From NCBI GenBank assembly GCA_965112155.1, contig OZ218105.1: a DNA stretch of 64,000 bases. One strand, given 5' to 3'. The position numbers and the translations under genes were made by a program. Positions 8,141 through 64,000 of this stretch are shown piece after piece. Numbering within the stretch: position 1 is the first letter of the stretch; every line of letters begins with the position of its first letter. This DNA comes from Podarcis liolepis (lineage: Eukaryota). The notes below the pieces were generated by a model. That model did no database searches. It was not told the DNA's origin and saw nothing but the letters and a program-made list of their open reading frames with translations.

Positions 8141-8855
8141 CTACTACTGAGTTTTTAAAAGCCTAACTGACAAGCAACAGTAGCAACCCAAACAGGACTG
8201 TGCATCCACCTGACATTATGTCCAGCATAGGGCTACCTAAACGTCCCATCAGCACATGGGTTTCCTCTTGCACAACAGGACTCCTCTTGCCTGTTGCCTC
8301 CCCCCTCCCCCTCCTGCTGTGACCACCTAACTCTGTCTGGAGGTTCCTCAACTCTTGGGAGCAGATTTGGGGAGAGTTTGTTGAACAGGTTGAGAGGAAG
8401 AATGGGAGGAGGGAAGCGGGCAGACCCCATTTCACAAGCAGAAATCCTTGCACGGATGGGATGCATGTGTTGGATTACCACCCTATATATTTGTTTTATT
8501 ATACCACCCTTTAATCATATTCCCAGGAGTCCCAGTCAAGAGCAACCACTGCACATGCATTCTCCTCTCACCCCAATTTACCACAGAACATCCTGGGGTG
8601 GGGGGAGGCAGCTGGAGAGAGTGTAGCATGGAAAGAAATGAAAGCCCTACATGCACCTTGTAAAAAGCATAACAGCTGCAAAATGAAGGAACCCCGGGAT
8701 GTCACCCTCCACAACATACACACGCATGCATACACACCTCATTTACCTCTTTACACCTAGCAGATGGAAGTCTATGGTAGATAAATATGGTAGATAAATA
8801 TGGATTTATGGATTGCAAGCAGAAATGTTTTAAGAATCACTTTAGTGTATCTTAC

Positions 8856-11291
8856 CCCATCAGAGGGACTCTGCAAAACACTGCCTGCCTGCTCAAAGGC
8901 AAGCATGCTTTCTGCTGTAGTGGAATGACTGAAAGGTTTAACAAAAAAGAATTCGCCCTGTTCAGACATTGGAGAGAGACAAGACTTGTAGTGCTGAGCT
9001 CCAGCTCCGCCCACTTCAAGGTATCTGATAAAGCCTTCGGGATGTGGGCGCCCAGTGAAATTTATGGTGGATTTCCTGTCTGTCCTCTTACTACAGCAGT
9101 GTGACATGAACCAGCTGGGGACACAGAGGCCAGATCTGAAGCACCTGGCCCCCACAATAACCAACATTACACAAGAGACCAGAGAGATGGCCACAAGAGA
9201 GATGATAAGGTAGAGAGTTAGGCTGGGGGCTCTGGAAGGTGATTTGGGGAGAAGGTCCAAGGACTTGGAAAAGTCCTGCACAGCATTATCCTCTGAGGAA
9301 ATCACAAGAACCAGTGAGGCTGAGAGAGACGGCACTCCATTGTCTCTTACTTCTATCACCAACCTGTGGGACACCCCAGGCTCCCTCAATGCCCGAACAG
9401 CCCGGATCTCTCCTGAGTGGCGTTCCACTTTGAACGGGGTGGCTTCATTGGCATCCTGAAGCAAACTATATGACAGCCAAGCATTGTGGCCACTGTCAGC
9501 ATCCACAGCCACCACTTTGGTCACCAGGAATCCAGGTTCCACCGGGAGCAGAACTGGCTGGTGAAAGGCAGAGCCCTTGGAGACTTGCGGGTGCACAATC
9601 ACCGGGGCGTTGTCGTTCTGGTCCACAACAAACAAGTGAAGAGTGGCTGTGCTGCTCAGGGGTGGGAAACCCGAATCCTTCACCTCCACTGCAACTTGAA
9701 AGACTTTCTCTTGCTCATAGTCAAGCATCCTGGATGTGTAAATGCTGCCATTCTCTTGGTTGATGTGGAAATAGGTCGAAATGGGTAAGCCATGATTTCC
9801 ATTGTCCACAATGGAATAAGACAGCTTGGAGTTGACACCTGCATCCGGATCTGAGGCTGACAGAGAAAAAACTAGAGTCCCAGGGGAAGTATTTTCCTCC
9901 ACATGGGCAGTGTATGAAGGGATGGAGAAAGTGGGTGCATTGTCATTGACATCTGAGACTTGAATAAATATGTTTTTGTGGGTGGATTTTTGAGGCATTC
10001 CAGAATCTGTTGCTTTAATTGTGATATTATATCCAGCAGCCTTCTCTCGGTCCAGGGGCCCATTGGTCACCAGTGAATAATGTCCCTTAAAGGAAGACAC
10101 CAGTTTGAACGGGATGTGCCTGGTAATCTCCAAGTGGACTTGCCCATTTTCCTCAGAGTCGTTGTCCTTTGCTTGGATCAGGGCAATGACTGTTCCTGTG
10201 GGTGCATCTTCTTGCACTGGGCTAGAGAGGGAGGTCAGCATAATCTCTGGGCGGTTGTCATTGACATCAACAAGTTCCACTCTGATGTTGCAGTGACCCT
10301 CCATGGCAGGGGACCCCTTGTCTTTTATGTAGATAGCTATCTCGTAAGCATTGGCTTCTTCGTAGTCCAGCAGAGCTTTGGTCCTGATCTCCCCTGTCTG
10401 GGGATCCAAGCTAAACAAGTCAAGGAGCTTGAGAGGTGCGCTATTGCTGGCTTTGAGGAAATACTCCATCTCTCCATTGGGACCTTCATCTAAGTCCGTA
10501 ACATTGAGCTTAGTTACAACAGTCCCCACCTGGACGTTTTCCTCCAAATAAACTTTGGACACTGGCGGGTCACACACAGGGGGGTTGTCATTTGCATCCA
10601 GGACGTGGACTGTCACCTGGGCAGTCCCAGACTGAACAGGATTCCCACTATCCAGAGCTGTCAGGACTAAGTGATGGACAGCGGCTTTTTCCCTGTCTAG
10701 AAGCTTCTCCAGCACAATTTCGGGCATTTTGACCCCGTCCCCCCTGACGTTAATGCTCAAGGCAAAATGTTCGCTTGGGCTGAGCTCATAGGTGGCAATG
10801 GAGTTGGAGCCCGTGTCCGGGTCTTCGGCGGCTTCCAGGCGCAAGCGGGTGCCCGGGTTGGCCACCTCGGTGATTTCCAAGGAAACCCTGTCCTTCGGGA
10901 ACCTGGGGGCGTTGTCGTTCACGTCCAGGATCTCCACCTCCACCCGGTGTAGCTGCAGGGGGTTCTCCAGCACCAGCTGGAGAGGGAAGGAGCACGTGGG
11001 GCTGGAGCTGCACAGAGCTTCGCGGTCCAGCCTCTCGTGGACCAGCAACATGCCGTCGGCGAGGTTGACATGGAAGTAGTGGCGCATCCCGTCGCTGACC
11101 AGCTGCAGGCGGCGAGCGGACAAGCTCCGCACGTCCACGCCTAGGTCCTTCGCCACGTTCCCCACGGAAGAGCCTGGGTCCCGGTCCTCTGGGATGGAGT
11201 AGCGAATCTGCGCGGGGATGAGCCCTGGCAGGGACAAGACGGCAGCCACCAGCGCCAGCAGCTGCCACGACCAGCTCTGCCCGCCGCCCAT
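8856..11291 (-). CDS. Protocadherin gamma C-type variable exon (last before the constant region; no mammalian positional counterpart)
   Basis: Intact ORF: signal peptide, six cadherin repeats (DRE, DxNDN, AxDxG), TM, variable cytoplasmic domain; first ATG 11291; phase-0 donor GATGGG|gtaaga at 8856. Confidence 0.93.
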
Positions 11292-11900
11292 GCCTGGCTC
11301 CTTTGCGCGCAAGGATGGCCGTCTCCAGCGGCTGCCTCTGCTCCAGGTATCCAGCCCGGGGGTGGCCGCTGCTGCCTCCGGACCCCGCCGCAGTCCGGTG
11401 CCCCCCGCCCCGCCCCCCAGGTCTGCTCCTGGCGGCTCCGGGGTGACCTGAGAGGTGCTGTGCAGCGGAAAGGCGCGGGCTGCAGCTGGAGAGGCGGGAG
11501 GGGGGAGCGGGGGGATTTTAAAGCGCTCGGATCAGCAGCAGCTCATTGGCAAAAGGAGCAGCAGAGAAAAGGGGTTGTGAAATGGATACAGACAAGCGGC
11601 AATTCCCTCCTCGGCGGCGGCGGCGGCAGCAGCAGAAGAGAAGCCCCTTCCCCGAAACGCACACACACCCTGCTGCTCCCCCCTCCCCAATCTCTCTTGC
11701 CACCAGTTTTCCCTCCCTGCGCTTCCCATTCCTTTCCCAGCGCAGCAGAGAGATTTGGAGGGCTGACCCAAGGGAGCCATTGGCCAGAAGAGCTCCCTTG
11801 ATGCCCCTCTTGGTGGAAAAGCAGGAATCGAAGGTGCAGAACGCAGACAGGGCGAGCTGCTGACGGCAGCTGTAACTCCAGGAGGGGGGAGGGGGCTACT
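10720..11900. promoter_or_regulatory. CpG-island promoter of the last C-type exon, with CCAAT box and (GGC)n(AGC)n tract
   Basis: High GC and CpG density over EC1-EC2 and upstream; sense-strand GCCAATGAGC at 11541-11550; no CSE-type GCCGCTGTTGRCC seen. Confidence 0.7.
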
Positions 11901-12160
11901 CTACCCTCCTGCAACCTCTTCACTTCAATCCCCTCCCTCCTCCCCTCCCCCTCCCCCCGCTCATAAAGAAAGAGAGGAAAATTAGGCACACAAAGCTTTT
12001 GAGCAGATAGGTTCAATGTATCACAGCCTATGCTTGAGACCACGCATTGATTCCTCACCCCCACCCCAGGCACTTCTCCTAGGTGCAGGGAAACTCAAAA
12101 GAAAAGGAAGGTGGTGCCATGGCTGGAACAAAATAGGGACACTACATGGAAAATCCTCAC

Positions 12161-14599
12161 CTTGCCAAAGAAGCTGGGTTCAGTGAGATTGCTGCAAGAA
12201 GCTGTCCTAAGTGTCAGATTAGGTTTCATGAATACAAATTCGCTAATGTCTGAGACAGGAGAAAAGCAGGATCTGTATCCACGGGCAGGGGGTCCAGAAG
12301 TGGCCACTTGCACTCCTATCATGGCATCTCCAGGGCTCAGCTGATAATGGCAATGTCCCATCACGTGATCCGAAGCATCTTGAAGCCCACCAGCTTTGCT
12401 TCCACAGCATCCAAAGATGGTAGATGTTGCACGTGAATCACGGCGGAGGCATCGAACTGCCAAGGCCACCAAAGCCATCAGCGAGATGGTGGAAATTGCT
12501 GCCAAGGAGATGATAAGGTACACAGTCAATGTGGGAGGTCCCTCAGTTTCCACTGAGTGAGCTGTTAACCCCAGAAAGGTTTCAGCGCTGCTCTCCTCCA
12601 AGAGCACCATCACAGTGACTGAGGTGGACAAGGAAGGATCACCTGAGTCTTTGACAACCAGGACAAGGTCCTGGGTAGGATTGTCTATGTCCTGCAATGC
12701 TCGCGTGGTCCTCACCTCCCCGCTACGGAGGGCCATGCTGAAAATACCAGGGTCTGTGGCTTGCTCTACATGGTAAGAGAGCCAAGCATTTCGCCCAGAG
12801 TCCAAGTCCACTGCCATAATTTTTGTGATTAAGGCATTGGCTGCAGTAGATCGTGGAATTCTGAACTGCACAACAGAATCTTTCCCAGTAAAGGGGAATC
12901 GAATCCAGGGTGCATTGTCATTCTGATCTAGGAGGTAGATGTGCACCATGATTCTGTTGCAGAGAGGAGGGGAGCCACCATCACATGCCTCCACCAGGAA
13001 CTGGAAATGATTCGTATGCTCGTAATCAAAAGGGCTCTCTGCAAAGACATCTCCATTTGTTGGGTTGATGGAGACATAAGAGGTGAGGTCCTCAATCAAT
13101 CCTTGCCCTGGGCTCGCCAAAACAGAATAAGACAAACGGGAGTTCTGGTCCTTATCAGAATCTGTGGCAGAAACTCTAAGCAGTACCACCCCCACTGGAT
13201 TGTTCTCTTCTATGACGGCTTCATAAAATGGCCTGTCAAAATGAGGTGGGTTGTCATTGACATCTGCCAGAGTTATGGAGAAAGAGGTGTGCTCAGAAAG
13301 AGGTGGATTCCCCAGGTCAAAGGCATAGATGGTGACGTTGTATTGCGGAGTGCTCTCACGATCTAGCTGCTCACTGGTGAGCAAGGAATACTGGTGCTCA
13401 AAGTCTTTCCGAAGTTTGAAAGGAAGGTTTCTGGGCAGATCACACCGGACTTTCCCTTGATCCCCAGAGTCTCTATCCTTGACATGTATCACAGCAACTA
13501 CAGTGCCAGGAGGCGCATCTTCACCCATAGAGCTGGAGAAAGAGGTGAGAATAACTTCAGGTGCATTGTCGTTGACATCTGTGACTTCTACCATAACACT
13601 GCAGTGTTCCTCCATAGTAGGGGAGCCCATGTCCTTAGCCTCCACTTCGATCTCATAGACATTAGCCTCTTCAAAATCCAGGCTCCCTTGGACACGGATC
13701 TCTCCCGTAGTCTCATTGATAGCAAATATCCTGCGCAAGGCTTCTGAGTTATGGCTGCTGAGGGAATACTGCACCTCTCCGTTAGGCCCTTCGTCCAAGT
13801 CTGTTGCGTTCAGCTTAATCACCAGGGTTCCTGGAGGAGAGTTTTCTACTAAGCGGGTATAATAAGTAGGTTTGTCAAAAACTGGATGATTATCGTTGGC
13901 ATCCAGAATGTGGACGGCAATTCGAATAGCGCTAGATTTGGGGGATATGCCCCCATCTTCAGCTGTCAGGACCAAGTGGTGGACAGCGATGTGCTCCCTG
14001 TCCAGGGGTTTCTCCAGTACTAGCTCTGGGAATTTGGTGCCATCTGTACGTGCCTTCACGTTGAGGTTGAAGTTCTCATTGGCGCTCAGGTGGTAGGTCT
14101 GTAAAGTGTTAGTTCCTACATCTGAATCCTGTGCGTGTGGGATGGGGAAACGGGCACCCAGTGCAGCCAGTTCATAGATCTGCAGAGATATTGTGCTACT
14201 TGAGAACACAGGCGCATTGTCGTTGATATCCAGAATCTCCACTTCGATGCGATAGAACTCCACTGGGTTTTCAATAGCAAGTTTGAGATGCAAGAAACAG
14301 CGCAGGTTCTGCCCACAGAGCTGCTCCCTGTCTATTCTGTCATTGACTATTATGATTCCAGTGTTCACATTCACAGAGAAATACTGGGAGTCAGAATCAG
14401 AAAGCACCTGCAGATTGGCAGCTGCAAGCTTTGTCACATCCATTCCTAAGTCCTTAGCAACATTTCCTACAAAGGCTCCTCGAGTGAGTTCCTCTGGGAC
14501 AGAGTAACGGATCTGTGCAAAACAGTCACTCAGAAACAGACAGAAGGCAAAGGCATGCACGAGTCCCAAACGCCAGGCAGAGTTTTCTGTTCTGAGCAT
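12161..14599 (-). CDS. Protocadherin gamma C-type variable exon (extra, downstream of gammaC5)
   Basis: Intact six-EC ORF with TM; first ATG 14599 (MLRTENSAW); phase-0 donor GGCAAG|gtgagg at 12161. Confidence 0.93.
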
Positions 14600-14829
14600 C
14601 TTTCTGAAATCCACAGCAGGAAGCTCTAAAACTGCAAAACAGGAGCTAAATATAGCAGGCAGTATCTCTTTAAACCTCTGGAGGATTCACCACCTATCTC
14701 GAAGAAATATGAAATATACGAGAGGAAAAGGGTCTGTGGTCAGTGTTTACCTCTCTCATTCATTGTTTTGGTTTGAGAGAGATTGACACAGGAGGGGAGT
14801 GGTACACACCGCAGATCTTCAATGCTAAC

Positions 14830-14915: not shown

Positions 14916-15724
14916 CTGGAAGTTGCTACTGTGTGAAAAAGGACCGCGTAACCTGCTGTTTTTAACCTAGAGACACCAGGCTAAACGGCAGACAATGGAA
15001 AACAAAGCCCAAAATCTTGTCTGGTTTTGGCTTCTGTGCTAGCTATAGGACTCTTAGAAGCATACGCTGCAAAGAAATGTTTGCTCTAAAAGCACACTGA
15101 CTCCTCACGTATTACATCCACAACAGAACAGCTGATTTGTCATTTTTATGAGCAAAGATAATTCAATGAATTCTAGGAAACAATAGTTCCTCTTACCCCA
15201 TCCTAAGCTTCCAGATCAATCTCTTTTAGTTATTTCTAGGCTACCAAATTAATATCTAGCTTTATTTACTGGTATTTCAGAAGCCTTAGACTCCACCCTT
15301 CCAATGTAAAAACTCAAGGGAGTGCTTGGTTTTTCTCAGGGAAAGAAATCTAATTGTATGGGGGGGGGGACTTAGCAGTTGCAAAAATATGAAGAGCTAA
15401 CTTTGTGACAGGCAGCATTTGAAGGATGATTTTAAATTATCATTTTCTTATTGTTCACATCCTAGTTCCAGTCCCTGCTCCCCTACCCACTTTCTCTCAT
15501 TAAAAGGCAGCAATTTGTGGGAAGAAATCAATGTAATTTCCCCCCCTCTCCTGCTCTCTCTTTCCCAAGGCGTTATGACTATGTGGTGCAGGGTTAGGTT
15601 ATGAAGAAGGAGGCCCCACCCTATTCTGATAACCGATGAATCAGCCCTCAGTCAAGTTTCAAAGTGTTACTGGAGATACCAGTTTCATGTGGGAAAGGAG
15701 AAAAAGGACAAAATGCCACCTCAC

Positions 15725-18175
15725 CTGCCTGGGATGGTTCAGTGTATCAGTACGAGATAAGAAAGTGTCAAAGTCTCTCGTCAGAGTACTTGGTTGAGGA
15801 TAATCCACAGGCCTCATAAAGGTGAAATCACTTCTGTCCGAGCCGGGAGAATAGCTGGCTCTATAGCCCTGGCTCTGGGAGTCTGTGGGCCTGAGTGTGA
15901 CCTCCATGTATTTCAATGTGCCATCTGAGTTCAGTTGAAGCTTAGGGCTGGCTTGTTTGAAAACATCCCTGGCAGGAGCACCACTCAGGCTGCAGCAAGA
16001 AGAACCCCTGGCTTTTTTATTCCGAAAGCATTTTGCAGACAAGATGATGAACGTAACGAGGGACACAATGCTAACTGCCACCAGCGCAATAATCAGATAG
16101 AGGGTCAGGTCAGATTTTTCTTTGGGGTGAGTCAGGAAATCACGAGACTGGGGCCTTTCCTCAGTTACTTTATCCTCCAATGAGACCACGATGGTGACGG
16201 TGGTAGACAAAGGTGGTTCTCCATTGTCCTTCACTAGTACAAGGATTTTCTGTGCTGGGAGATCTGTTTCCTGGAACTCCCGAACAGTCCAGATTTCCCC
16301 AGTGTAGGGAGCCACTCGGAACAAGGAGGGGTCAGTAGACTGGGAAAGCAAGGAGTAAGAAAGCCAGGCATTGTGGCCAGAGTCTGCATCCACGGCAGTG
16401 ACTTTGGTGACCACATAGCCTGCCGATGCAGACTGAGGGATCCTCTGGATTGCAGACAGTTCCCGACCAGTCACTGGGTGCAAAACAACAGGCGTGTTAT
16501 CATTCTGATCCATTATGAAGAGGTAGACAGTGACACTGGAGCTCAGTTGGGGTGACCCAGCATCATGCACCATGATGGGGATTTGCAGCACCTGCAGCGT
16601 TTCATAGTCAAAAGAGTGCTGGGCATAGACATTCCCATTGTCTGGGTTGACGTAAATGAAAGAAGAGACTGGAGCATCTTGAATGGGGCTTCCTGCCACT
16701 GAGTACGTGAGCCGGGAATTGTCCCCCTCATCAGGATCAGAGGCCGCCACAGTGCATAGCAGAGAGCCAGGTGGATTGTTCTCCTTCAAGAAGGAGTTGT
16801 AGAAGGGCTGAGAGAAGTACGGGGCATTGTCATTAACATCTGAAATGTTCAGCAAGATGGTGACATCTGTGGTTAGAGGTGGGGACCCTGAATCTTGGGC
16901 CGTCAACTTGATAGTGTATCGAGAAACTGTTTCTCTATCCAGTTTCTCAGAGGTAATCAAAGAATAGTGGTTTTCAAAAGATTTAATTTTAAAGGGCAAG
17001 TTTGGTGATATTTGTAAGCTCACCTTTCCATTGGCACCTGAATCTTGGTCTCGCACATTGAAAAGCCCTACCACTGTCTCTAAAGGGGTGTTTTCTGGCA
17101 CGGGGTTTACCAGAGAGGTAAGGAGAACCTCTGGGGGGTGGTCGTTCTCATCTTCAACTTCCATTTGGATTACACAATGGCCTTCCATTTGAGGAATGCC
17201 CTTGTCCCTGGCCCTTACATGAAGCTCATAAAAATGAGATTCTTCGAAATCCACAACTCCTTGGACCCGGATCTCACCTGTGTGGGGATCCAAGCCAAAC
17301 AACTTCTGGATGGAATCAGGTGTGTGGATTCCAAAGGAATACTGTATTTCCCCATTAGAACCCGCATCAGGGTCAGTTGCATTAAGTCTGAAAAGCAAAG
17401 AGCCTACAGGGATGTTCTCCGAAAATCTTATCTTGTACAAAGGAAGGTCAAATGCAGGCTCATTATCATTATTATCCAGGACCACAATGGTGATCAGAGC
17501 TGTTCCTGACAGTACAGGGTCCCCCCCATCACAGGCAGTCAGGATGAGCTGGTGTTCCGATTGTTGCTCTCGGTCCAAAGGTTGCTCTAGCACCAGCTCA
17601 GGTAAAAGCTTGCCATCGTTCACATTCTTTACATTAAGTGAGAAGTGGGGGTTGGGGCTGAGTCGGTAGACACTGACTGCATTGGTCCCCACGTCCGCAT
17701 CATGAGCGCTCTCCAGTGGAAAGCGAGACCCTGTGGCGGCAGACTCTGCTATCCTCAGCACAAGCTTGGGGGTGAGGAAACCGGGGGAATTGTCATTTAA
17801 GTCCAGGATCTCTACCTCCAGGTGAAAGAGCTCCAAGGGATTTTCTATGACTACTTGGACTGGCAAAATGCACCCCGAGCTTGCTCCACACAGGGTCTCT
17901 CGGTCTATCTTTTCATTCACTATCAGAGCACCGTTGGCCAAGTTAACTGCAAAGTACCTCTTGCTCTCCTCAGAGCCCAGCCTCAGCCTGCGCCGGGAAA
18001 GGTCTGCCACCGTTAAGCCCAAGTCCTGAGCCACCTTTCCCACCACGGTGCCCAGCTCCGATTCCTCCACCACGGAATAGTGGATCTGTCCTGTAACCAA
18101 CGCCCGGCTGAACAGCAAAAACAAACCCAGTACTTGCCATTTGAAAGAGGGTTGCCGGGACAAATGTGGCTCCAT
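15725..18175 (-). CDS. PCDHGC5: Protocadherin gamma C5 variable exon
   Basis: KWQVL..GQIHYSVVEESELGTVVG.VAQDLGL..RRLRLGSEE and DGTLKYMEVTLRPTDSQS match human gammaC5 as recalled; donor AGGCAG|gtgagg at 15725, phase 0. Confidence 0.92.
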
Positions 18176-19704
18176 TTCAGAAAAAAGTCCCCTTCCAGAA
18201 GGAGTCTTTGTGATATCCCAGGGATAAGGAGGCTCCAGGACCTGGATGAATGCTGTTTTTCAAATCCCTCGGTATTTCCTTCCAAATGAGTTAAAGTAGC
18301 TTTTGAGCTTGCCTAGCTGCAGCAACAGAATGTTAGTCAGAGAGTTGAGGGGGTGGATTGGGGGAGGGAAGCTGAATTACAGCCATAGCGACGGAGGAGG
18401 AAAGTCAAGGCAGAAAGAGCTGATCCCCCCTCCCCCCAAAATCTGGATCAGCACCTGACTAGATGACAGCTCCATCCACTCTCCACCAGTGACAAGTCCA
18501 CCTACACTCTTAAAGCTGCTGCAGCACATGAAGTTGGGAGACCAGGACTGATCACCCCCATACCTCAACCCTAAATGTAACCAAGAGGCTGGTTTGCCAC
18601 TGGTTTTGGCAGCTAAGTTTAGCAGCTCAGATTCTTGTTCTCAAGGAAACAGCACGTCCGGGAAGCATGAACGGTACAAATCCTCATTGTTCACATTAGC
18701 TAGATTCATTCCATCTCATCTGAACAAAAGACAAACTCTCAGCTGTAGGGGATACAGAACCATAGTCTCTCTGGCAAACAACTGGTCCGATTTTTCACTT
18801 GCAGTGAAAAAGGTATTTGTTACAGTCGAAAAGACGAAAGATAGGGAGAAACTCTCACAGAAAGTGCTTTAGCATTTTGCGACGCAGCTTCAATAAATGC
18901 ATTTAAAACTCTTAGTCATTACCAAGGCAAAACAGACCCTTTCAGAATGTTCATTTTCAAATGCAGACATGGGAACCTCCACCACACAGTGAAGAATGCA
19001 CAATCTTCAAAATTGCTTAAGGCCTCCCAGCTCTATTCATTGGCCTTTCCAAAATTAGAACACCACAATCAATGCAGCAGTATTTCTAAGTAGAACCATT
19101 GTAACCCAAAGACCATGGTGTGGCTTTGAATGTCAGGGACCCACATACCAAGTAGTTTTTAAGCTGTGGTGTTAAGGCACTTTCCAATAATGAAACACCC
19201 AAGTACAGATTCACAGAACTGTGATGGACTCAGTGAGTGGACCATTTTTCTTAAGATGGGGTGCCTCATTCTTGATGCATTCCCGACTTATGATGCTCAG
19301 CACTTTTTCTTTCCCCTCTTTCCACCAAGCTTTCAAAAACATCAGAAAAACAAATATTTGACAACCTCCCCTGGAAAATCATTTAACTGCTGGATTTATT
19401 TTTCGGTTAGAAACTTTTTGCTGCTTGTTAACCTAAATCTAAGTACCAGTAGTTTAAAAGCATTACTTCTTGCCAAATATCCACAGGGTGAACAATTGCT
19501 AATCTTCCCAAGCTTCTTCTAAAATAGCCTATCTCCTTGAAGAATCTCAAATCCAACAAAATGCTTTTTAATTTACAAACTGACCACCTTAACACAAAGG
19601 CTGCCTGACATTGCCATTGCATCTGTGACCTCTATCCCTGGAGATTGTTACAGAATCACAGGGTGCTACACGACATAGTTATAGAACAGTATTTCATGCC
19701 TCAC

Positions 19705-22155
19705 CTCGTTTGGCTCTCGGGAAAGGCTGCAGGCCAGAAGTGTGCCTGTGCTGTTGATATCCTGCTGAGTGACTGGTGTAGCTATCCTGAAATTCCTCCC
19801 TTCTGAAAAGTGGGTCTGGCCAGGCCTTAGGAGGGTAAAAGGAGAAACAACATCTCCCCCAATGAAGGCTGTAGGGAATTCCATTTTTTCCTCCTGGCTC
19901 AAGCGTACTGAGAACGTGTCAAAGTGTCCTCCCACAGGAATAGAGTTCCTACCCTTCAGGTCGCTGGTCCAACCCACATCTGAGTGTCTTCCTTTCAATC
20001 TTTTAAGACACTTCATAGCTAAAAACACAAAGGCCAGAGCAGAAAGTCCTGAGATTGTGATTAGAGCAATAATGAGTTGCAAGGTCAGGTGAGACAGCCC
20101 TTCTTGTTCCATGCTGGACTCTCTGAGGTCTGCTGCGCCCAACTCATGCTCATGCTCTAGATTAAGAATCAGAGTGGCTGTGGCAGACAGAGGTGGCTTC
20201 CCATTGTCCAAGATCTCAACAACCAACTCTTGGGAAGGGGCGTCTTGTTCCAGGAGGGCTCGGACGGTTCGGATCTCTCCTGTGAACGCTGAGACTTGGA
20301 AAAGGCTTGGGTCTGTGGCTTGCTGCAGCTTATAAGAAACCCATGCGTTCTGCCCAGAGTCTGCATCCACAGCTGTGACTTTGGTTACCAGGTAACCTCC
20401 TTGTGCAGAAAAAGGAACTGGCTGCTGGGCTAGGACCCCCTTCTTGGTTACAGGGTATACAACGAGAGGAGCATTATCATTCTGGTCTATGATGAAGATG
20501 GAGACAGTCACATTGGCACAGAGTGGAGGAGAACCATTATCCTTAGCTTGAATCTGGAAAACCAGTTGCTGGGTTTGCTCATAGTCAAATGAGCAGCCAC
20601 TGTAGATAGTACCGTTCTCCATAACATAGACATAGGAGGAAATGGGCATTCCATTTATGATATGCTCCACTAATGAATAAGACAGGTGTGAGTTCTGCCC
20701 CAGATCAGGGTCAAAGGCAGATATAGAAATGATTGGCAGCCCCAGAGCATTGTTCTCAGTTACGAGGGTCTCATATGCAGGCTGTGAGAAGTGGGGTGGG
20801 TTATCGTTCAGGTCAGATATATTTACAAGGAAGTTTCTTTGACTGGAGAGAGGCGGAGAACCAGAATCCGTAGCTGTGATCATAACTTTGTACTGTGAGA
20901 TTTCCTCCCGATCTAGGGGGCCACTGGTGATCAAAGAGTAGTGGTTCTTGAAGGAAGGTACAATCTGGAAGGGGACATCTGCAGGGAGATGAAGCTGTAC
21001 TTCTCCATTTTCCCCAGAATCTGCATCACTGACTCTGAGGAGCCCTGCTGTGGTACCTGGGGGAGCATCTTCTGGTATGGTGGTGGTGAGGGAAGTGAAC
21101 CTAATGATAGGCTCATTGTCATTCACATCCACTACCTCCACTAAGATGTTGCAGTGTGCATCCATGGAAGGTGACCCTTGGTCTTTGGCCCTCACATCAA
21201 TTTCATACAATGTGTCATCTTCGTAATCCACACTTCCCAGGACTCTTATCTCCCCAGTCTCCTCATTAAGGCTGAACATTTTCCGGATTTTCTGTGGAGT
21301 GTGGCTGCTGAAGGAGTAGGAAACTTTCCCATTTGCCCCCTCATCATTGTCTGTAGCTTGTAAAAGTATCACAAGGGCCCCCACTGGGGCATTTTCTAGT
21401 AGGCTAACTTTGTACACCGACTGGTTAAAGACAGGTGGATTGTCATTGGCGTCTATGACTGACACGAGAATCTTTGCTGTCCCGGATTTAGCAGGAACTC
21501 CTCCATCCAGGGCTGTAAGCACCAGGGGGTAGCGCTGCTGCTGTTCTCTATCCAGCGCCTTCTCTAACACCAGCTCAGGTTTGCTGCCGCCTTTATGTGA
21601 CTTAACACTGAGGCTGAATTGTCCACGTGGACTCAGCTGGTAGGTGCTGACTGAATTCATGCCAACGTCCAAATCTTCAGCACTTTCCAGGGGGAAGCGG
21701 GCCCCTGGCATTGCAGACTCTGCTATCTCCAAATGGGTGAGACTGGTAAGAAAAACTGGGTCATTGTCATTCACATCCAAGAGCTCAACTTCCACACGAT
21801 GGGAGGCTGTTGGGTTTGCAAGTAGGAGCTCCAGATAGAGCAGGCAGTGTAAGCTGGGCCCACAAAGCTGCTCTCGGTCCAGCCGTTCTTTCACGACCAA
21901 GACACCATTTGGCACCTTGGCTTCGAAGTACTTTTCAGCAGAGCCAGCCATGATCTGCAGCTGTCGGGAGACCACCCGGGCAGCATCTAGACCCAAGTCT
22001 TTAGCCACATCCCCAACAAAGGCCCCAGGAGCTAACTCCTCAGGAATCGAATAACGGAGCTGGGTCATCTCTCCAGCACACTGGAGAGAGACAGAAACCA
22101 AAAGCAAAGCTCTTACTTGCCATGGCAGGAGTAGTCTTTCTTCCAGAGACAGCAT
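19705..22155 (-). CDS. Divergent C-type gamma variable exon between the gammaC4 relic and gammaC5 (orthology uncertain)
   Basis: Intact six-EC ORF; first ATG 22155 (MLSLEERLLLPWQV); donor AACGAG|gtgagg at 19705, phase 0. EC1-EC2 lack gammaC4 hallmarks, though EC5-TM has some C4-like words (FDYEQTQ, DLRESS). Confidence 0.9.
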
Positions 22156-23039
22156 AATGTCGCCAGAATTTCCTCTTCCTTTGCTGGACTTCTGTCCTCT
22201 CTGATTCCAGCACAGCCAAGGAAACAACACAGAATCCCGGGTTAGATCACGCAAGGGATGAGAAAGCGGCGCACCATCTGCATCTTTTCTCTGTTTTTCT
22301 TCCACAGAAAACAGCAGCGGTGCCTAGTCCGTATCGGAATCAAGAGGGGAGGAGCTTTGTTGTCCATCAAAGCAGATACAGGGCTCCTGGAATCAAGGAA
22401 GCGCCTGGCTGTTTGCAATGGACCACTCATTCTCCCCCTCCCCAGCTCCAGCAATGGGGTGGGGGAGGTCTTAAAGCGCCAGTGCAAATGTTGAAGAGCT
22501 GGGAGCCCATTCGCCAGCTGTCAGTGACTGGATTTCCCAAGATAATTATATGAACAATAAATCCTATGTCATTACAAGCTTTTGAATTCATTAATGAATG
22601 TCACAAGCATTTAAATTCAATAATGAACACTCTTTGTTTGGAATGGTTGGGGTTATAAGCTAAACCAGCAAACTGCATATTTTGCAGATTTTTTAAAAAA
22701 TAGAATGCAACAAACACCAGTGGCTGCACAATTAAGTGATATACTGCCATTTGCTGGATATAAGATCATGTTAAAAGATCCATTGACTGTCTGCCTGAAT
22801 TTCCTTTAAATGAATGGCATTCAATAATCGATGCAGGAGAGCTCTTCAAAGCTCATTCCAAATGGAGTATACTAGAGTCTCTCCATATACCCTTTCCTGA
22901 ATTTCAGGAGTTTTGCAGCCAGTGCACAAAACAGAATAAACCATGACATCACAAAGGAAATTTTTAAGCCTCTGGAGTGAAAGGTTAGGAGGAGCAAGGT
23001 TAAAAAGAGTTTTATGAGCAAGAACCTGGTCCCTGATGT

Positions 23040-24350
23040 TCCCAACAAACAGCTTCCATAGTGGAGACAACTAAGATAATAGTTAGGGAAGGGGTCAGGT
23101 CAAGGAGATTCATGGACTTCCTGGAAAAGATGAAAGAAATCTAGGAATAGAAGTATTTTCTCTCCCCTAAAGGTAGACAATGCCTTCTGAATGTTGTCAT
23201 GGTAGACTTCAGTGAAGAGGTAGATGAGGCACACTGCTGTTGAAAAAGTGGTGTCCTCTGTCTTATGTGCTTGCACTGGAAGCACCTGGATTTGCTCCTA
23301 GTGGCATCATGTGTGGTTGAGAAGCTGGGCACCTCCCGTGTGTGAGATTTCACAGTAGAAATGAAACAGACAGAATGTATTTACGGTGATGGTTCTTCTC
23401 CAGGAGTACTGTGCAGATAATATAGGTTGTTCGTATTGCATTTGTTATTCTGTTAGCTAGATTGGTCTTTACTGTCCAGAGGAGTATTTGTGACTAAAAC
23501 CTGGTTTTGAAACACGGCCCATGGCTTTAAACGCAAGCATCTGGGAATACTGGCAATCACTGCTGCTCCACTGCCTCTGGAGTGAGCTGCTTGCTATGTG
23601 CAGAGACATGCTCTCTGGCACGGACAAAGTTTGTTTTGACCAAAAACAATATCTTTTGGGTATTTGGGGACATAAAAAATGTGCACCACCATATGTTCCA
23701 TGGCAAAGACGTCCACCTCATTTTATCATTAAACTTATAGCTTCTATTTTATAGGCAAGCCTCCTTTTCACCACAGCTGTGACTTCCCAATAGTCACATA
23801 TGACCCAGCTGGAGTATAGTTGCATCGGGTGGAGTCCCCCTATATATGGAATTGCCATACTAAGTAAGGTGTTGCTCCAATATAGAGCTTTCAGGACCAA
23901 GCAATGCTCAACTTCCTTAATTCCCGGTCAATGTTTTTCAAAGACGCAAGTTCAGATCTCTTCACATCAACAGACAAGAAAGTCTTAACAAGTAAGTGAT
24001 GATGGAACTGCTGCTTGTTCTACTAACCAAGGAATGTTAATTTCTCTGATTCTAAATATCTCTCTGTGTCACAGGCCCTGGAGAAGGTAGGAATCGTCAG
24101 CACCTGCATTTCCCACTTCTGCCTGATACATTTCCATGGATCTTCTTACATCCATTTTGACTCCATGAAGGAGCTTGACTCACATGTACACAGGGACTCA
24201 CAGTTTACAGGTGCCTTTCAAAGAAGTAAAAATCTATTTCCACAGTTATCATCTCACTAATCAACTATTATATAGCAGTCGTTTGGGGATGCAATTTCCC
24301 GTTCTTTGCTATGATTTCTATGTAACCTAAACTCACCCTTCTAGTCCACT
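23040..24350 (-). pseudogene. Decayed gammaC4-like variable exon (frameshifts, stops, large deletions)
   Basis: Colinear minus-strand motifs: SLGYI (~24330), PVNCESLC (24188-24211), EMYQAEV (24114-24134), DVKR (23957-23968), DRE..HCLVLKAL (~23885-23930), YKFND..GG..AMEH (23693-23739), VPES (~23615), FQNQVLVTNTPLD (23474-23512), TM-like LTPSLTIILVVS (~23065-23100). Confidence 0.75.
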
Positions 24351-27300
24351 TGGACTAGTGATGGTCAGGGATTGGCACAGTGCCTGGGCAGAGAGCGCAG
24401 AACAATTAGCAGCATCCACAAAATTCCTGCAGGGTGGAAGTACCTTGAGATTCTGGACTCAGGCTACATCAAGAGCAATTTTCTTCAGCTCAAGAGTTTG
24501 TATTTGTATATTACAACACCAAAAATCACAATATCAAATACATTCCTTGACTTACTGATTCTGCCTTTTCTAATGCCTGAGAATACACATTAAAAAAACT
24601 TAAGGATACTATTCTTTATAATGAATGTTCTTATCTTGATAATACCAATGTCTTTATACACTCTTGCTTCTCTTGAATTCACCTGCACATAACATTCAAC
24701 TTTGCAATCCTATTTATTTTCAGAATCCATTTAGTCGCAAATAGCACGCATACTGTACAGATATTTCTAACTAGTTATATACAGTCTTGGTTCACAGAGC
24801 TACGAACGCTGCATAGCAAGCTAAGTGGCTTTGAAAGATGCAAAGCCACTTGGCTTGGTTTAACTAACACACATGAATTATACTACAGGACACTGTGCTA
24901 AACTTCACAGGAAACAGTATTTGATGAGAAGCATTCAAATCAGTTCCTAATGCACACTTGTGCCATTTAACTTAATGGAATGGAAAAGAAATTCTGTATT
25001 CTAAACCCTTGTCTTTAATGAAATCACAATAAATATTTGGTGCACAGGAAAACATTTCAACAATGGAAATGGGAAACCTTGTAATTAGGATTTGAGAGGA
25101 GTGGGGAGACTGAAATCTCACTTCAAAATCCGAAATATGATTGAGTTTGATTGCTTTAGACTTTTTGGACAGTTGATGACTATTTTCTAGGTTCAAGATT
25201 GTAGACAAGCAAGCAAGAGGGAAATTTTAAATGTTGGGGGTCAACATACAGTAAGTTTCATTACATGCTCCCATCCCCCTACACTAAACTCATTTGTGAA
25301 AGGCACCATAAGATCTTGAGTGGGGTCTCTGGGCAGGGATTGTGTATGTTTATTGCTGTCAAATCTCATCCAGTGGCAGATGGCTAGACAGCGTGATGTT
25401 AGCCAGCTCTTTCCGCTCTTTGTCTTCCATTATCTTTACAGAAAAACAAATATGGTTACTTTCTTGCATTGCTCTAGATTAGATGATAAAGTTTCTGATC
25501 TTGGATTCTCCTGTGTTGCTTTGGCTGCATATATGCTCATCTTAATTTTCAAAGTGAGATTTCTTCTTTCCAATCTCAATGTTCTATAATTCAGGGATGC
25601 TTGTTACAAACTAGAAGACCAGTGTGTTTGGCAGTAAACCCCACAGCATATGAAGCTGTCGCCTGCATTTATTTCCGTGCACAAAGCGCAGCAGGTCCTG
25701 GCCTCTTGCAACATATTTTCAAGCACATATGATTTTAATAAGTACAGCCTCCTCAACTGAAAATGTAATGAACACACTAAATGTTCACATTGTTTCAGTA
25801 ATACGTGAAGGAGCCCTGATTATATTTGGTGAGAGTCTGCCCTGGCTTTTGCATATTTTAGAGCCAGATGGCCTACTAATGAAAAGCCTCTGTGCATCAT
25901 TCTAACTTTTGTTAAAAACACTCAAGAAACTAATGGTTCTGCCTGTACAGATTAAGTGTGGGATCTGGTGCAGCTTTAAGAGTACGTCAGCTTAGGGTCA
26001 TCATATTGTGCTGGAATTGCTAATGCCTATTGACAGGACACACACGGACACACAAACACACCTCTCCTCCGCTGTCTCTTTTGCCCGCCCTATTTTTCTG
26101 ATCATAGTCATTTTCTTAACAATCTCCCCAGACTATGTAATTTTGGGTAGGAAAACGTAGCTAAAACAATTTCCAAGGATCTCAGGGTTCACATGTCAAC
26201 CATTTCAAGCAAAGCAACACGTATGGAAGTTAAGAAAGCCTAATTATGAATTGATAACAGCAATGCAACCCTTTTAGCATCAAAATAGTACTAATAAACA
26301 ATAATAATTTAAATCTCAACAACAAATTAAAAGTACAGATGAAATCACTAATCAGTTATCGATGAATTAACATCATCATCATCATTATTATTACATTTAT
26401 AAGGCTGCCATATAGCAGTTTTCTGGGTGGCTCACAAACCAAACCAAGCAGTAAAATACAGCATATTAAAAACCTATGATGAATTAATTAAAAGTTGATG
26501 CACAATTTAAAACTCAAGGTATAAAATCAAAGGAAGCTACATACAAAATATCAATTACTGTTGAGAATGTGTATATATATTTCCCACACAGCCGAAAGGT
26601 TAGGTACCACATTGCTCTAAAACATGTTTGGATATCAGATGCCAAATACTAAATGCCAAATTAACCAGGTACAAAGACTCAGAACCAGTTCACTGAAATG
26701 ATGGCCCTGAAAGCTATTCACAAACTATCAGGGGTGAGAACTGGCCTGGAGCCAGACTCTTTCTTGCAACCTCTGCTTCACCCTTGCAATCTCTGGGCTT
26801 CCTGGTCCTTCTTCCAGCACCCTCTCCACATAAAGCTGCAGTTTATCACTGTACCCTAAAACAACTTCCTGCCTATAGCATCTAATTGTGTAGCAGAATG
26901 CACCCTGAGCATGTATCTACACTGCAGATTCAAACTGGTGCAGCAAAATCATTCCCAAGGAATTATAGGAATTGCGCTTCTGGCTCAGATCTCATTGAGG
27001 TTGTACAGCTGAGTCTGGGCTGTACCACTTCAGACTGCAGGTGGGGACTCAAGATGGCTGTATGCTCCTCCATGCCAGCCACCCCACGGTTAGGATCCAT
27101 CTTCCTGACATCTAGCTTTGACAGAGCTCTGAATTCTTTGTACGCAGGAACATTCAAAGATGTGGGTTTCATCTGCAATCTGCAATGGTACAGCCTAGAA
27201 ACAGATTAACCATCTTGGTGAGAACTGGGCCTCTGTGAGGAAATCTTACAAACAAGACACACAACGTGCTCTCTTCAGAGTGAAAATGTTCATGAATATT

Positions 27301-28411: not shown

Positions 28412-30111
28412 TAAATAGTAAAATTATCATTATGGAATGGGACGTCCCTATTTTCATTGGAGAAATGTTGGTATGACAGAATGCACAAGCCTCTTTGCAT
28501 ACTTTTCACATTTTGCACTTGCTATAGGGTGGGGTATTCTTTAACATCTACCCACACTTATTGTGTAATAATATTTACAGAAAATAACTTATAGTGAGTA
28601 CCTGATCTTAGACCAACTCACCACAGGAAAGATGCATCGTGTTTTGTAGAAAGAACAGATTGGCTAAATAACAGAAATTCCAAGGACTAGAAAATGAAAC
28701 AAGCAGGGCAGAAAAGTGCACTGGATGGAAGAGGGAAATGGCAGCTCTTTAAGACACCAGTTATTCTATAGCCTGGTGTCCAAACAACTTACTCATCAAC
28801 CACAGCTCAGACGTCACTCATTTGCTAAAAACACTGAAAGGTGGGGATAGCTGGGCTGGCACACTCACTCACTTAGAAGGGTACTCACACATTTTCCTTG
28901 ATAACTTCATTTCTAGAAGGGCTAGGCTCTTACATTTTTTCAATGAAAACTCAAAGTCTGGGTCCTCTGACAAGCATAGGCCCCAGAGCAATATCCGCAA
29001 CCCCCTCGATTTCTTAAAATAACAAGCACAGGGCCCTTCATTGGGAACAGAAGCACCAAACCAGGTGGCAACAGCTGCCACCTTCTCCAACGGTCCCAGG
29101 GCCTCTGGGCCTCACTTCAACATAGTGGTGCTATATTGGGGCCCAGAAGCACTGAGGGGAAATGAAAACGGCATTTCTCAGCATCAGGGCAAGGGAGCAC
29201 CATCTCTCCTCACCACCCCCATGCTGCTGCCCATCCTTGCCTCCACCTGCTGCGGCCTCCAGGTAAACTAATTTGGGGGTGCACACCTGGTGGCTGGTCC
29301 TGTGTGTAGGCCTCCTTCTGAAAGGCATCCATGCTCAGGCTCTTTCCCAGAAGTCTCTTTTGTATAGAAGAGCATCTTCCCTGGAAGGCTGCTGCCATTG
29401 CTTACATAGAAAGTGCCATTTCCCCCTACCAAATTAGTCTGAATGAGAAGCCATCAGAGCCCTGTTCTAATGTCTCTTCTTCTGCTACTCCTACTCCTAC
29501 CCCTACTCCTACTCATGTTTGGCTACATAGAGAATAGGTTCAATTCCACCATACACATAAGGAAAAGGAATAAGTCTTACATTTCCACCCCATCATAGAT
29601 GAATATCAAACAGGCATACATCAGAGGCTAGGCCCCCAAGGAAATGTTGAAGGTGATCTCCCTTTAGCGTCTTGAAGAAGCACCCAAGTCAAAAGGCCTC
29701 CCAATACATATCCAACCCACTATTTACACAGCATTACTGTTTCCTTGCGTATGATTTTTCGTAAAACATAAACTTACTGGGAGCTATCATTCTTCAGAGG
29801 CAATGACTATGCAACCCCACAACAGCTGACCACATTGATCTGACCCAGAGCAGAAAGAACAAACCACCCAACTCCATGTAATGTAGGAAGGAAACAACAC
29901 ATGCACAGGAGTTAAACAGGCGGGGCTCGTAATCATGCTATTAAATGACACAGCACTAGATGGAGACAGAAAACAGGGGGGAAAAATGTGTTCTACAGGA
30001 ACTACCCTGTTTCCGGGTAGAAAGACATTGAGTGGTCTGCCTTTAAGTCAACTTAAGCTCAGAGCTGGGATTTCCCAACTTTACTGGAGAAGGACAACAA
30101 GCATACATTAC

Positions 30112-32556
30112 CTCAGAGGGCACCAGAAGCCTCTTATTTGTGCTTATTAGCTGGTTATATATTGCAGGGTCACATCTTGTGATAGTGCTCTGGCGGCTCC
30201 CCATAGGGCTGGGAGCAAAGGGCATTTTGTACAGAAGTTCACTCTGGCGAGAGTCCGTGGTGAGGACCTGCTGGTAGAAGTTTGGAGGAGTAAATCCACT
30301 CCGCACAGTGTCTATGTGGTTGAAAGGCCCCGGGGTTCTATAAAGGGAGCTTCTGGAGGCTTTGAATATATCCTTGGATTGCCTCCACTTGTAAAATTTA
30401 TAAATCCCCACCCCAACCACGGTGACAAAGAAGGCCACTGAGATCAAGATGACAGCAATGATTAAATAGAAAGTCAAGTGCTTCTTTGTTTGGGGTGTAG
30501 TGGACACAGCAGTCAAGTCTGTCAGTGTCTCCCTAGATGTCTCTGCTACATCTACAGCAAGGGTCACTGTGGAGGACAAGGCAGGCTCCCCATTGTCTTT
30601 TATTAAGATGAGCAATGTTTGCTTGCGAGAATCTTCCTCTTGCAGAGAACGAGCTGTGCTTACCTCCCCAGAATGCAGCCCCACAGTGAACAGCCCTGGG
30701 TCAGTGACCTGAAGGAAGGAATACGAGAGCCAGGCATTGTAACCAGAATCTGCATCCCAGGCCACAATTTTTGTGACCATGTAGCCAGGGCTGACTGTGG
30801 GTGAGATGACTTCTGAGAGCGAAGAACTGTTGTTTGAGTTTGGGTATAAGAGCCTGGGTGCATTGTCATTCTGATCTGTGACAAAAACATTGACAGTGAT
30901 GTTAGTGGCAAGAGGCGGGAGGCCAGCATCACGAACCTGGACCACTAGCCTGAACTCCATGGTGCCCTCATGGTCCAAGGGGACTAGGACATATATGCTG
31001 CCATTTTCCCGGTTAATAGAAAAATACCTGCCCGCCAAGTCTCCCGAGGACATGGGACTATCCAGGATGGAGTAGGAAAGGTGGGAATTCCGGTTCAGAT
31101 CCGGGTCAGAGGCACTGATGTTAAAGATCAGGGTCCCTGGAAGGTTGTTTTCCTCCACATACACATCATAGGAGGATTGTGGAAATTTAGGAGGGTTGTC
31201 ATTTACATCAGATACTTTAACCAGTATTTGCTTCTCTGCCATGAGTGAGGGTGTGCCTGCATCCTGAGCTGTGATGGTGATGTTGTACTCAGAGACAAGT
31301 TCCCTGTCCAAGGGTCCTTTGGTCTGTAAGGTATAATAGTTTTTAAGGGAAGAGCTGAGGGCAAAAGGGATCCCAGAAGGTATAAAGCAATTTACTAGGC
31401 CATTGTCACCAGAGTCCTGATCCGTGACACTCAGCAACGCAATCACAGTCCCTGGAGCCGCGTCTTCTGGTATTGGGCTGTACACCGACGTCACTGTTAT
31501 TTCTGGGGTGTTGTCGTTCACATCCACAATCTCTACCAGCACTTTGCAATGAGCGACACCAGGATTTGAACCCTTATCTTTTGCCTGGATATAAATCTCA
31601 TAAAATTTGGCTTCTTCAAAATCCAGCAACCCCTTCAGCCTCAGTTCTCCAGTGGCAGAGTCTAGGGCAAAGAGCTGTCGGATTCTGGCAGGGGTGTGAC
31701 TGCTGAAAGAGTACACAATCTCCCCATTGGGACCTTCATCCAGGTCGAAAGCTCTGGTTTGGACAACCAGGGTGTTCAAGGCTGTGTCTTCTTTCACGCT
31801 GGCTCTGTAGATGGACTGGTTGAAGACAGGGGCGTTGTCATTTGCATCCAGGACGTCAACCAGCACCTGCAAGCTGGCCGATCGGGGTGGGGTCCCTCCA
31901 TCCATCGCCGTGAGAACCAGCTGCACTTCCCGCTGCTGCTCCCGGTCCAGCTCTTTCTCCAGCACCAGCTCCGCATACTTCGTCCCGTCGCCTCGCGTCT
32001 GCACGTCCAGCACGAAGTGCGGGTTGGCGCTGAGCTGGTAGGTCTGCAGAGAGTTGCTTCCCACGTCGGGGTCCTGCGCGCTCTCCAAGGGGAAACGCGC
32101 TCCGGGGGTCACCGACTCGCTGATCTCCAGCTTCATCTGCTTGCTCTGGAAAGCCGGGTCGTTGTCGTTGACGTCCTGGATCTCCACGGTCACGCCGTAC
32201 AGCACCAGCGGGCTCTCGGCCACCACCTCCAGGCTCAGCGCGCATGGCGAGAGGGCCCCGCAAAGTTCCTCGCGGTCGATGCGCTCGCTCACCAGCAACT
32301 TCCCGCTGCCCAGGTCCACCTCGAAGTACTTTCGTCCGCCGCCCGACACCACGCGGAGGTTCCTGGCGGGCAGCTGGGCGAGATCGAGGCCCAGGTCGCC
32401 CACCACGTTGCCCACCGAAGAGCCCCTGGGCATCTCCTCGGGGATGGCGTAGCGCGTGGCGGCGAGCGCCCGCTCCGAGACGCCCAGCCACAGCCAGAAG
32501 CCCACGACGGGCAGCCATCGCGCTCTCGGCCGGCTCCTTCCCGCGGCGCCTCTCAT
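30112..32556 (-). CDS. PCDHGC3: Protocadherin gamma C3 variable exon
   Basis: EIYIQAKDKG.NP..AHCKVLVE, ITVTSVYSP, SSLKNYY, VAWDADSG and YKWRQS..SSLYRTPGP match human gammaC3 as recalled; first ATG 32556; donor TCTGAG|gtaatg at 30112, phase 0. Confidence 0.95.
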
Positions 32557-33450
32557 CTCCCGGCCTCGCAAAGTTTCTTTCTTTTCGCGGGAGCGGCGGG
32601 GAGGTCCCTCTAAAAGTTTTCAGCCGTCCCTTCCATGCGGCCGCGACCCTGCCCGGTCCAGGCTCGCCTCGCGCGGACTTTGGGGGTCGGGCATTGCTCG
32701 GCGGCGCGGCGCTCCGGCGGCGGGACTGCGCTCCGTCTGGTGCTGGCGCTCAACTCGCGGCGGCGGCGGCGGCGGCAGCGTCCCACTTCGCGCTGCTTCG
32801 CCGCCAGCATCGCCGGGTCAACAGCGGCGCGCAGAGTCGCGACCATTAACTGCAGGAGAGGCCGCTCCCGCTCCGCCTCCCCGGCTCGCCGCCGGGACTC
32901 CGAGGCACGAGGCGCACGGCTCCATCCAAGCTGGGCTGGCGGGGCCCGGTGACTTCTTTTTTGGGGGCTGGGGCGGGGGTGTTCCTCGGTGAAAGGCTTG
33001 CGGAGGCTGCCCCCTAGGCTGCACAGCCCTCCCCGCTCCGCCGCCGCGAGAAGGAGCGAAGGGAAGCGCGGACCAAGGAGGCAGCGAGGGCTCATTGTTC
33101 TCGCTGGGGAGCGTGGAGGAAGGGCTGGACCCCGGACGCTTCCGAGGGATCGGGAGAGAGATGCCTGCCTGCCTGCCTCCGGTGCCTCCGCCTCTGGCTC
33201 CCTCGCTTACGCTCTCCCGGCGTGGCTGCTCTGTGGGGCAGCCCAGGGCTCCCCATGCACGGCACTGCTCAGGGAGAACCCGCAAGCCCCCCAAGGCGGT
33301 GTAAGCTTCCCCTCTCCCTCTGCTCCCCACAGTGGCGTAGCGTGGGTTGGGGTGCAGGGGGGCCCGGCCGCACCGGGCGCAACATCTGGGGGTTAGGGTT
33401 AGGGGGCGCAAATTACTTGCCTTGCCCCGGGTGCTGACAACCCACGCTAC
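31840..33450. promoter_or_regulatory. gammaC3 CpG island
   Basis: Very high GC and CpG over EC1-EC2, 5' UTR and promoter; (GGC)n tract at ~32759-32776. Confidence 0.85.
32815..32855 (-). promoter_or_regulatory. CSE / CTCF site of the gammaC3 promoter
   Basis: Sense strand TGCAG...ctctgcgcGCCGCTGTTGACC, the Pcdh conserved sequence element with its upstream TGCAG module. Confidence 0.8.
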
Positions 33451-63970: not shown

Positions 63971-64000
63971 ATGTTAACAGATAAAAGAGACAGAGTGATA

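Follow-up and report, generated by a model that had tools for sequence, protein, structure and literature searches.

An intact C-type gamma-protocadherin exon in the gammaC4 position of Podarcis liolepis belongs to the anole gamma-c4 lineage and lies beside a probable gammaC4 remnant

Among the gamma-protocadherins of mice, gammaC4 alone is indispensable for the survival of neurons and for viability (PMC6957209). Lethality is incomplete with one hypomorphic allele (PMC13096477), and biallelic gammaC4 variants cause disease in people, a recessive neurodevelopmental syndrome (PMC8553613). In the gamma array of the lizard Podarcis liolepis, the position of this isoform is held by an intact exon that lacks gammaC4-type words in its first two cadherin repeats, which raises the question of what this exon is and what became of gammaC4. 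The window analyzed here is a stretch of 64 kb (64,000 nucleotides) without any N. We put at about 80% the probability of the following reading: anole gamma-c4 has its lacertid ortholog in this exon, which would function like other clustered protocadherins and likely lies next to a decayed true gammaC4. The exon itself has been known from anole since 2009, and the probable gammaC4 fossil next to it is the added value. The parts of the exon and its flanks are as follows.

19705..22155, minus strand: intact C-type gamma-protocadherin variable exon, 817 codons, stop-free; it begins with a signal peptide
about 22062-20152, minus strand: cadherin repeats EC1-6
about 20088-20011, minus strand: transmembrane (TM) segment
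20010-19705, minus strand: variable cytoplasmic domain, 102 residues
19698..19704, minus strand: splice donor GTGAGGC, its phase matching that of the C5, C6, and C7 donors
22156..22513, minus strand: likely promoter and 5' region (predicted), with CGCT occurring four times in the 330 nt nearest the ATG

The exon was called intact in a first-pass annotation, and this proved correct: it is a single open frame that ends at the GT donor at 19704. Pfam recognized six Cadherin stretches and Cadherin_2 (the EC1 model), and calcium-binding motifs were found in all six repeats. The structure model of the protein (mean pLDDT 72.8, 17-row alignment) has six beta-sandwich repeats, a TM helix, and a disordered tail. 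This is the layout of a gamma-protocadherin variable exon, namely a single large exon with a signal peptide, six cadherin repeats, a TM segment, and a short cytoplasmic segment. All sequence words previously quoted for it (IAESAMPGARFPLESA, NPTASHRV, KSHKGGSKPEL, YVMENG, FDYEQTQ, AWVSY, DLRESS, and LTLQL) are present. The loops KSHKGGSKPEL in EC2 (as measured against paralogs) and YVMENG in EC5 are indeed shortened, each by one residue, and both deletions map to strand-to-strand turns in the structure model.

Read in the order of transcription, the window has three exons of gammaB-like type, then five of C-type, and finally the first constant exon. The exon under study is the second C-type exon, 7.7 kb downstream of C3, so that its label of C4 by position is right; it stands in a tandem array upstream of the gamma constant exons and has an in-phase donor. 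Its neighbors are listed below.

30043..32619 (ORF limits), minus strand: gammaC3 exon, 430 bits to mouse gammaC3 versus 296-310 for the other four C-type exons
15659..18259 (ORF limits), minus strand: gammaC5 exon, 461 bits to chain 4ZPO versus 316-343 for the other four
12095..14686, minus strand: fourth C-type exon, anole gamma-c6 by position, with orthologs in turtle and bird
8772..11531, minus strand: fifth C-type exon, anole gamma-c7 by position, with an ortholog in turtles
5303..5362, minus strand: first constant exon of the gamma cluster, to which splicing is predicted

The C6 and C7 exons (8772-14686, minus strand) have turtle orthologs at 72%–75% identity; C6 is also found in birds, and neither is found in mammals. 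Databases label the orthologs of both as gamma-C3 or gamma-C5.

The closest relative of the exon is that of Podarcis raffonei (98% identical). Over all 817 residues, it is 81% identical to DAA06627.1 (D0IQ77), "protocadherin gamma c4 isoform [Anolis carolinensis]," which occupies the same slot in a five-exon C-type array, has the same EC2 and EC5 deletions, and is 69% identical in the cytoplasmic segment. The lacertid exon differs from it at the TM start, where Gln replaces His, and in the stalk, where Glu replaces Lys. The array order C3-X-C5-C6-C7 is identical in the window and in anole. According to cluster look-ups, 12 named lizard species, ranging from geckos to iguanians, carry it (two Podarcis, Zootoca, Sceloporus, Pogona, two Anolis, Elgaria, Tiliqua, Sphaerodactylus, Euleptes, and Gekko). 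A search of ESM Atlas returned family-level names only. Identity, position, and tree (see below) all place the exon in the anole gamma-c4 lineage. RefSeq names the Podarcis muralis ortholog "gamma-C4," and automatic annotation mislabels members of the lineage as gamma-C4 or gamma-C5.

Jiang et al. (2009; PMC2764143) described five C-type gamma exons of anole, c3 to c7. According to their text, c3 and c5 are orthologous to human genes, and c4 and c7 to coelacanth gamma22 and gamma24. A direct counterpart in human is missing for c4, c6, and c7, which was explained by differential loss. The "human gamma-c2" listed there as unmatched is taken here as a slip for c4, since c4 is among the labels of Figure S1 of the same paper. 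In Xenopus, one-to-one gamma orthologs are likewise absent (PMC4978886). The first-pass annotation had regarded the exon as an ancient C-type paralog, C4 by position and not the ortholog of mammalian gammaC4; the bit scores given below agree with this, and the core point that a positional C4 is not a C4 was already published, as it was reported for anole c4 in 2009 (PMC2764143).

Trees were built from 32 rows with no mammalian C-type sequence among them, a full tree for EC1-3 and a quick tree only for EC4-6. In the EC1-3 tree, seven lizard and two turtle rows formed a clade with support of 100/99, and its sister was coelacanth XP_014343526.1 (P0119) with 87/80. The quick tree of EC4-6 returned the same lizard-turtle clade (100) and the same coelacanth sister (87). 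Thus, the domain trees proposed in the first-pass annotation were concordant for EC1-3 and EC4-6, in a data set without mammalian gammaC4 rows. Two bird rows, which are stitched gene models, shift between the half-trees, and the clade of the exon is unaffected. The support for the putative coelacanth sister is moderate (87). P0119 is possibly, on our assumption, the gamma22 of the 2009 paper. It is 49%–63% identical to the exon per repeat and shares NP-x-x-S-x-R in EC1 and Asp at the D290 position; it differs in having kept ordinary C-type cytoplasmic motifs (13% identity to the segment of the exon) and full-length loops. The exon lineage is common to lizards and turtles and is likely older than amniotes.

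None of the turtle gene models P0027, P0029, P0053, and P0108 is complete: three are stitched to C5 or C6 at varying points, and that of Caretta shows gaps and altered calcium motifs. This may reflect decay of the exon in turtles, but stitched models are also seen for other exons in birds. Among the matches listed, there was no ortholog from snakes, birds, crocodilians, or mammals; snakes may have lost the exon, although annotation gaps could explain this pattern. The lungfish P0122 contains a run of about six related C-type-like exons, and the three placed in the trees form a clade of their own.

The concordance of the half-trees bears on the suggestion that the exon is a C4/C5 chimaera, which had been based on a C5-like EC2. 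The exon is the neighbor of gammaC5 (15659-18259; with turtle and gecko orthologs) and is 60% identical to it in EC2 and 57% in EC6. However, EC2 identity is nearly as high to C3 and coelacanth (58% each) and to a teleost exon (59%), so the supposedly C5-like word is ancestral. Both halves place the exon identically, and C5 forms a separate clade in the EC1-3 and EC4-6 trees alike. On chain 4ZPO, which we take to be gammaC5, the exon scores 343 bits versus 461 for the lizard C5, and it lacks C5-type cytoplasmic motifs (Pfam Cadherin_C_2 14.9 bits with a cut-off of 31.5). This rejection covers chimaeras with C5, and those with gammaC4 only if younger than the turtle-lizard split. Relaxed selection, the other possibility raised, could be suspected from the two one-residue deletions, the polar residue at the TM start, and a cytoplasmic segment that evolves faster than that of C5 (68.6% versus 83.3% identity from lacertid to gecko). 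Against it, 28 variant sites in the exon comprise 19 synonymous and 9 nonsynonymous changes (pN/pS 0.157, p=2e-6), the variant contigs, which are shallow and may represent a sister species, coming from two related runs. The deletions are fixed across whole clades, and the odd features are common to lizards and turtles by clade. Both a chimaeric origin and relaxed selection are thus very improbable.

The ectodomain evolves at an ordinary rate. From lacertid to gecko, EC1-6 of the exon are 83.4% identical versus 85.9% for C5; from lacertid to turtle, EC1-5 are 74.6% identical versus 73.5%–79.5% for C5, C6, and C7. The NP-x-x-S-x-R motif of EC1 is common to the exon, turtles, and coelacanth. The EC5 deletion (about 20615-20625, minus strand) is present in all lizard rows and absent from turtles, and the EC2 deletion (21570-21590, minus strand) is present in lacertid, iguanian, and anguid rows and absent from skinks, geckos, and turtles. 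At the TM start, turtle and the paralogs have Tyr and other lizards have His, Gln being restricted to the Podarcis rows, while Glu of the DLRES word is confined to lacertid rows and replaced by Lys elsewhere. The odd features of the exon are best read from these alignments as inherited lineage marks, save the lacertid-confined Gln at the TM start and Glu of DLRES. The cytoplasmic segment is 68%–77% identical in the four non-lacertid lizards scored and 12%–17% identical to the paralogs of the window. As a separate observation, the EC2 and EC5 deletions are two clean phylogenetic markers.

The similarity of the exon to mammalian gammaC4 was at the paralog level. The EC1-4 part of mouse gammaC4 (chain 7JGZ) scored 463 bits on lizard C3, 462 on the exon, 469 on C5, 444 on C6, and 438 on C7, these being whole-sequence scores with weak cross-repeat matches included. 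With mouse gammaC3 and with chain 4ZPO, the true lizard ortholog exceeds the other exons by about 120 bits; no lizard exon does so with gammaC4. The scores being flat over five C-type exons, the window is therefore without an intact true gammaC4. Sequence searches and motif scans returned no gammaC4 from the collection searched, and the 17 best of 79 metagenome loci resembled fish or bird exons of other types, not gammaC4. The exon also lacks gammaC4 EC1-EC2 words, as had been noted at the outset, and gammaC4-specific words of this kind sit in the upstream remnant described below. The words FDYEQTQ, AWVSY, and DLRESS were put forward as gammaC4-like words in the first-pass annotation. As C4 marks, the first two failed: coelacanth P0119 and turtle C6 contain FDYEQT as well, and AWVSY is found in bird C3 and in exons of fish.

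Some features are nevertheless shared with mammalian PCDHGC4 (7JGZ; PMC6957209, PMC12559083, PMC8901172): both are C-type gamma exons between C3 and C5, and the lizard exon has equivalents of E78 and D290, some similar EC3 words, and a cytoplasmic segment of similar length. The length of 102 residues was considered as a gammaC4 mark and dropped as not diagnostic, paralogs being similar in length. The common EC3 words and the E78/D290 equivalents suggest that the exon and gammaC4 may be sister paralogs. Adhesion of mouse gammaC4 is very weak because E78 is without a basic partner, and the S344R substitution strengthens it (PMC8901172). The exon has Glu (E109) at the E78 position and R374 at the 344 position, where lizard rows have R or K and turtles have S; the weak trans-dimer signature of gammaC4 is thus missing. 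Since E109 would be paired with R374, the exon is predicted to bind better than gammaC4.

Could the exon still be a true gammaC4 ortholog that diverged fast, the upstream words being due to chance or to a dead duplicate? Its position between C3 and C5 and its RefSeq names would fit, and mouse gammaC4 is its best clustered-protocadherin match among the solved EC1-4 chains. But that match is no higher than for paralogs, the rate of divergence from turtle is ordinary, the 2009 tree separates anole c4 from human gammaC4 (PMC2764143), and the gammaC4-specific EC1-EC2 words are in the remnant rather than in the exon. We regard this origin as improbable. Judged by the bit scores and the 2009 paper, with trees that lack mammalian gammaC4, the exon is not the ortholog of mammalian gammaC4, in agreement with its assignment to the anole gamma-c4 lineage.

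The first-pass annotation also spoke of a dead gammaC4 next to the exon. The candidate is the following feature.

23200..24380, minus strand: probable heavily decayed true gammaC4 exon, with collinear EC1-EC2 words, an EC5-like patch, and 23-29 stops per frame

It was found by eye, by comparing the three minus-strand frames with mouse gammaC4 chain 7JGZ. Words lie at 24375, 24217, 24134, 23994, 23968, and 23929, and the EC5-like patch at 23302-23204 (minus strand). Residue 5 of 7JGZ corresponds to 24375, residue 58 to 24217 (KAPVNCESLC versus KNPIDREALC in the chain), and residue 86 to 24134 (EMYQAEV versus EMYRAEV), with spacings of 158 nt (159 expected) and 83 nt (84 expected). Residues 141, 152, and 172 correspond to 23994, 23968, and 23929, where the lizard sequence is short by a net 25, 7, and 21 nt. 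The EC1 words are absent from all five intact C-type exons. The two best segments score 34 and 33 (BLOSUM62, computed by hand). In a shuffle null with eight paralogs as stand-in queries, 3 of 1,200 trials produced a comparable pair lying within 3 nt of a single diagonal, and on the real gap such a pair was obtained in none of the eight paralog queries. Single segments of such a score were common under the null (3.4 per trial), and looser pairs occurred in 88 of 320. In addition, nhmmer gave two gap hits with sub-threshold E-values of 7.5 and 2.1, on the same strand, in order, and at the EC2 and EC5 patches.

Other searches of the gap stayed at background. Tblastn with 8, 121, and 267 proteins found nothing significant, the best E-value being 0.011 at 22436-22344 among 267 queries, which was taken as chance. 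The protein HMM search gave no row in the gap, and frameshift-aware alignments of paralogs scored 38-48 in the gap versus 33-50 in shuffles, and 15.8 versus 12.1-17.1. Pfam found nothing significant in the three frames, and single-frame PDB searches with candidate gap stretches yielded no cadherin hit. As a control, the decayed variable exon at 48.8-50.5 kb scored strongly in all four methods run on it. The claim of a dead gammaC4 is thus supported by the collinear word matches to the mouse chain, together with their shuffle null, and not by any paralog-based or PDB search. We consider the upstream words to be probably a fossil of true gammaC4; the 23-29 stops per frame would then indicate that the loss is old. 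Another candidate noticed by eye at about 27,150-27,050 was dropped, having no support.

In the literature, we found no report of a lizard gammaC4 remnant and no link of a lizard loss to the essential role of gammaC4, subscription papers and Figure 1 of PMC2764143 being outside the scope of the search. No gammaC4 remnant is described in the text of PMC2764143, the part of that paper compared here; pseudogenes are marked in its Figure 1. In the squamate gene-loss survey PMC13005343, protocadherins are absent from the text, and the rows PCDHGC3, C4, and C5 of Table S2 are names only. With a fossil in place, the mere absence of an ortholog would become a loss, pinned to a site, of an isoform essential in mice.

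Expression of the exon is weakly shown. Two true RNA runs gave four reads each on the exon, from 12% and 6% of the run, and the reads are sense-consistent in run X23; the stretch used in this comparison excluded the first constant exon, hence there was no junction read. Two runs guessed to be RNA cover the exon and little beyond, with an X2 contig ending exactly at 19705 and an X1 contig reaching 22513. None of the sequencing runs listed as containing the exon is recorded as RNA, and the RefSeq models of its orthologs are spliced. By analogy with the family, a promoter of its own would drive transcription of the exon, and splicing would join it to the three gamma constant exons; the donor is observed and the junction predicted. 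Made rigid by calcium, the ectodomain would engage identical molecules on the opposing membrane via EC1-4 and pair in cis via EC5-6, as is known for other members (PMC7811963, PMC8901172, PMC5106212). Signaling would proceed via the disordered 102-residue segment with a putative partner. The segment is conserved in lizards, is shared by no paralog (12%–17% identity in the window), and lacks the usual C-type motifs, which suggests an intracellular partner of its own. The ancestral amniote array likely had at least six C-type exons, of which mammals would have kept C3, C4, and C5, and lizards C3, the exon at 19705-22155, C5, C6, and C7, having probably lost C4 long ago.

If lizards lost an isoform that mice cannot do without, the adjacent exon might have replaced it: as a sister paralog of gammaC4, it would supply the neuronal-survival signal through its own conserved cytoplasmic segment, letting lizards lose gammaC4 and leaving the fossil in place. 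The gammaC4 cytoplasmic segment alone rescues survival, and the activity maps to this segment without a known motif (PMC12559083). Ectodomain words therefore do not decide the matter, because the survival activity lies in the cytoplasmic segment. The true gammaC4 is probably dead next door, although mice depend on it as on no other gamma isoform (PMC6957209), and the exon is kept from geckos to iguanians in the 12 named species. Its cytoplasmic segment is conserved and unique and, by the boundaries chosen, has the 102 residues given for mouse gammaC4 (PMC12559083), and the EC3 words and D290 are in common with the mouse protein. On the other hand, the lineage predates the loss, as seen from the turtle orthologs and the coelacanth sister, so it was not born as a substitute. 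The EC1-4 part is no nearer to mouse gammaC4 than C3 or C5 are, and Arg at the S344 position removes one gammaC4 signature (PMC8901172). A search with residues 640-817, word-seeded and weak, gave 10 hits among 1,003 candidates, all lizard orthologs or close relatives with no mammalian gammaC4. No snake ortholog was listed though snake protocadherins are in the collection, a weak argument as monitor and leopard-gecko orthologs are unlisted too. C5, C6, and C7 are equal candidates for the role, or the dependence may be mammal-specific. Replacement by this exon is accordingly an unlikely scenario.

The preferred reading, an anole gamma-c4 ortholog with a probable gammaC4 fossil at its side, offers material for the existing rescue assay. 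Lizards provide five natural cytoplasmic segments (C3, the exon at 19705-22155, C5, C6, and C7); one of them rescuing would point to the motif, and none rescuing would mark the dependence as a mammalian novelty. Were the exon a replacement, a comparison of its segment with that of gammaC4 would expose the survival motif. The gammaC4 protein also requires a carrier isoform on account of its EC6 (PMC8901172).

Remnants of other variable exons were observed elsewhere in the window. A decayed gammaA/B-type exon at 48774-50461 (minus strand) contains stops and frameshifts; one EC5-EC6 piece of it is 89% identical to a Zootoca exon, and the remainder is far more decayed. A further variable exon, probably broken, is represented at 63882-63995 (minus strand) by its signal peptide and the beginning of EC1, and an isolated gammaA-type fragment at 56443-56631 (minus strand), comprising the TM segment and the cytoplasmic start only, is 76% identical to a Zootoca exon.
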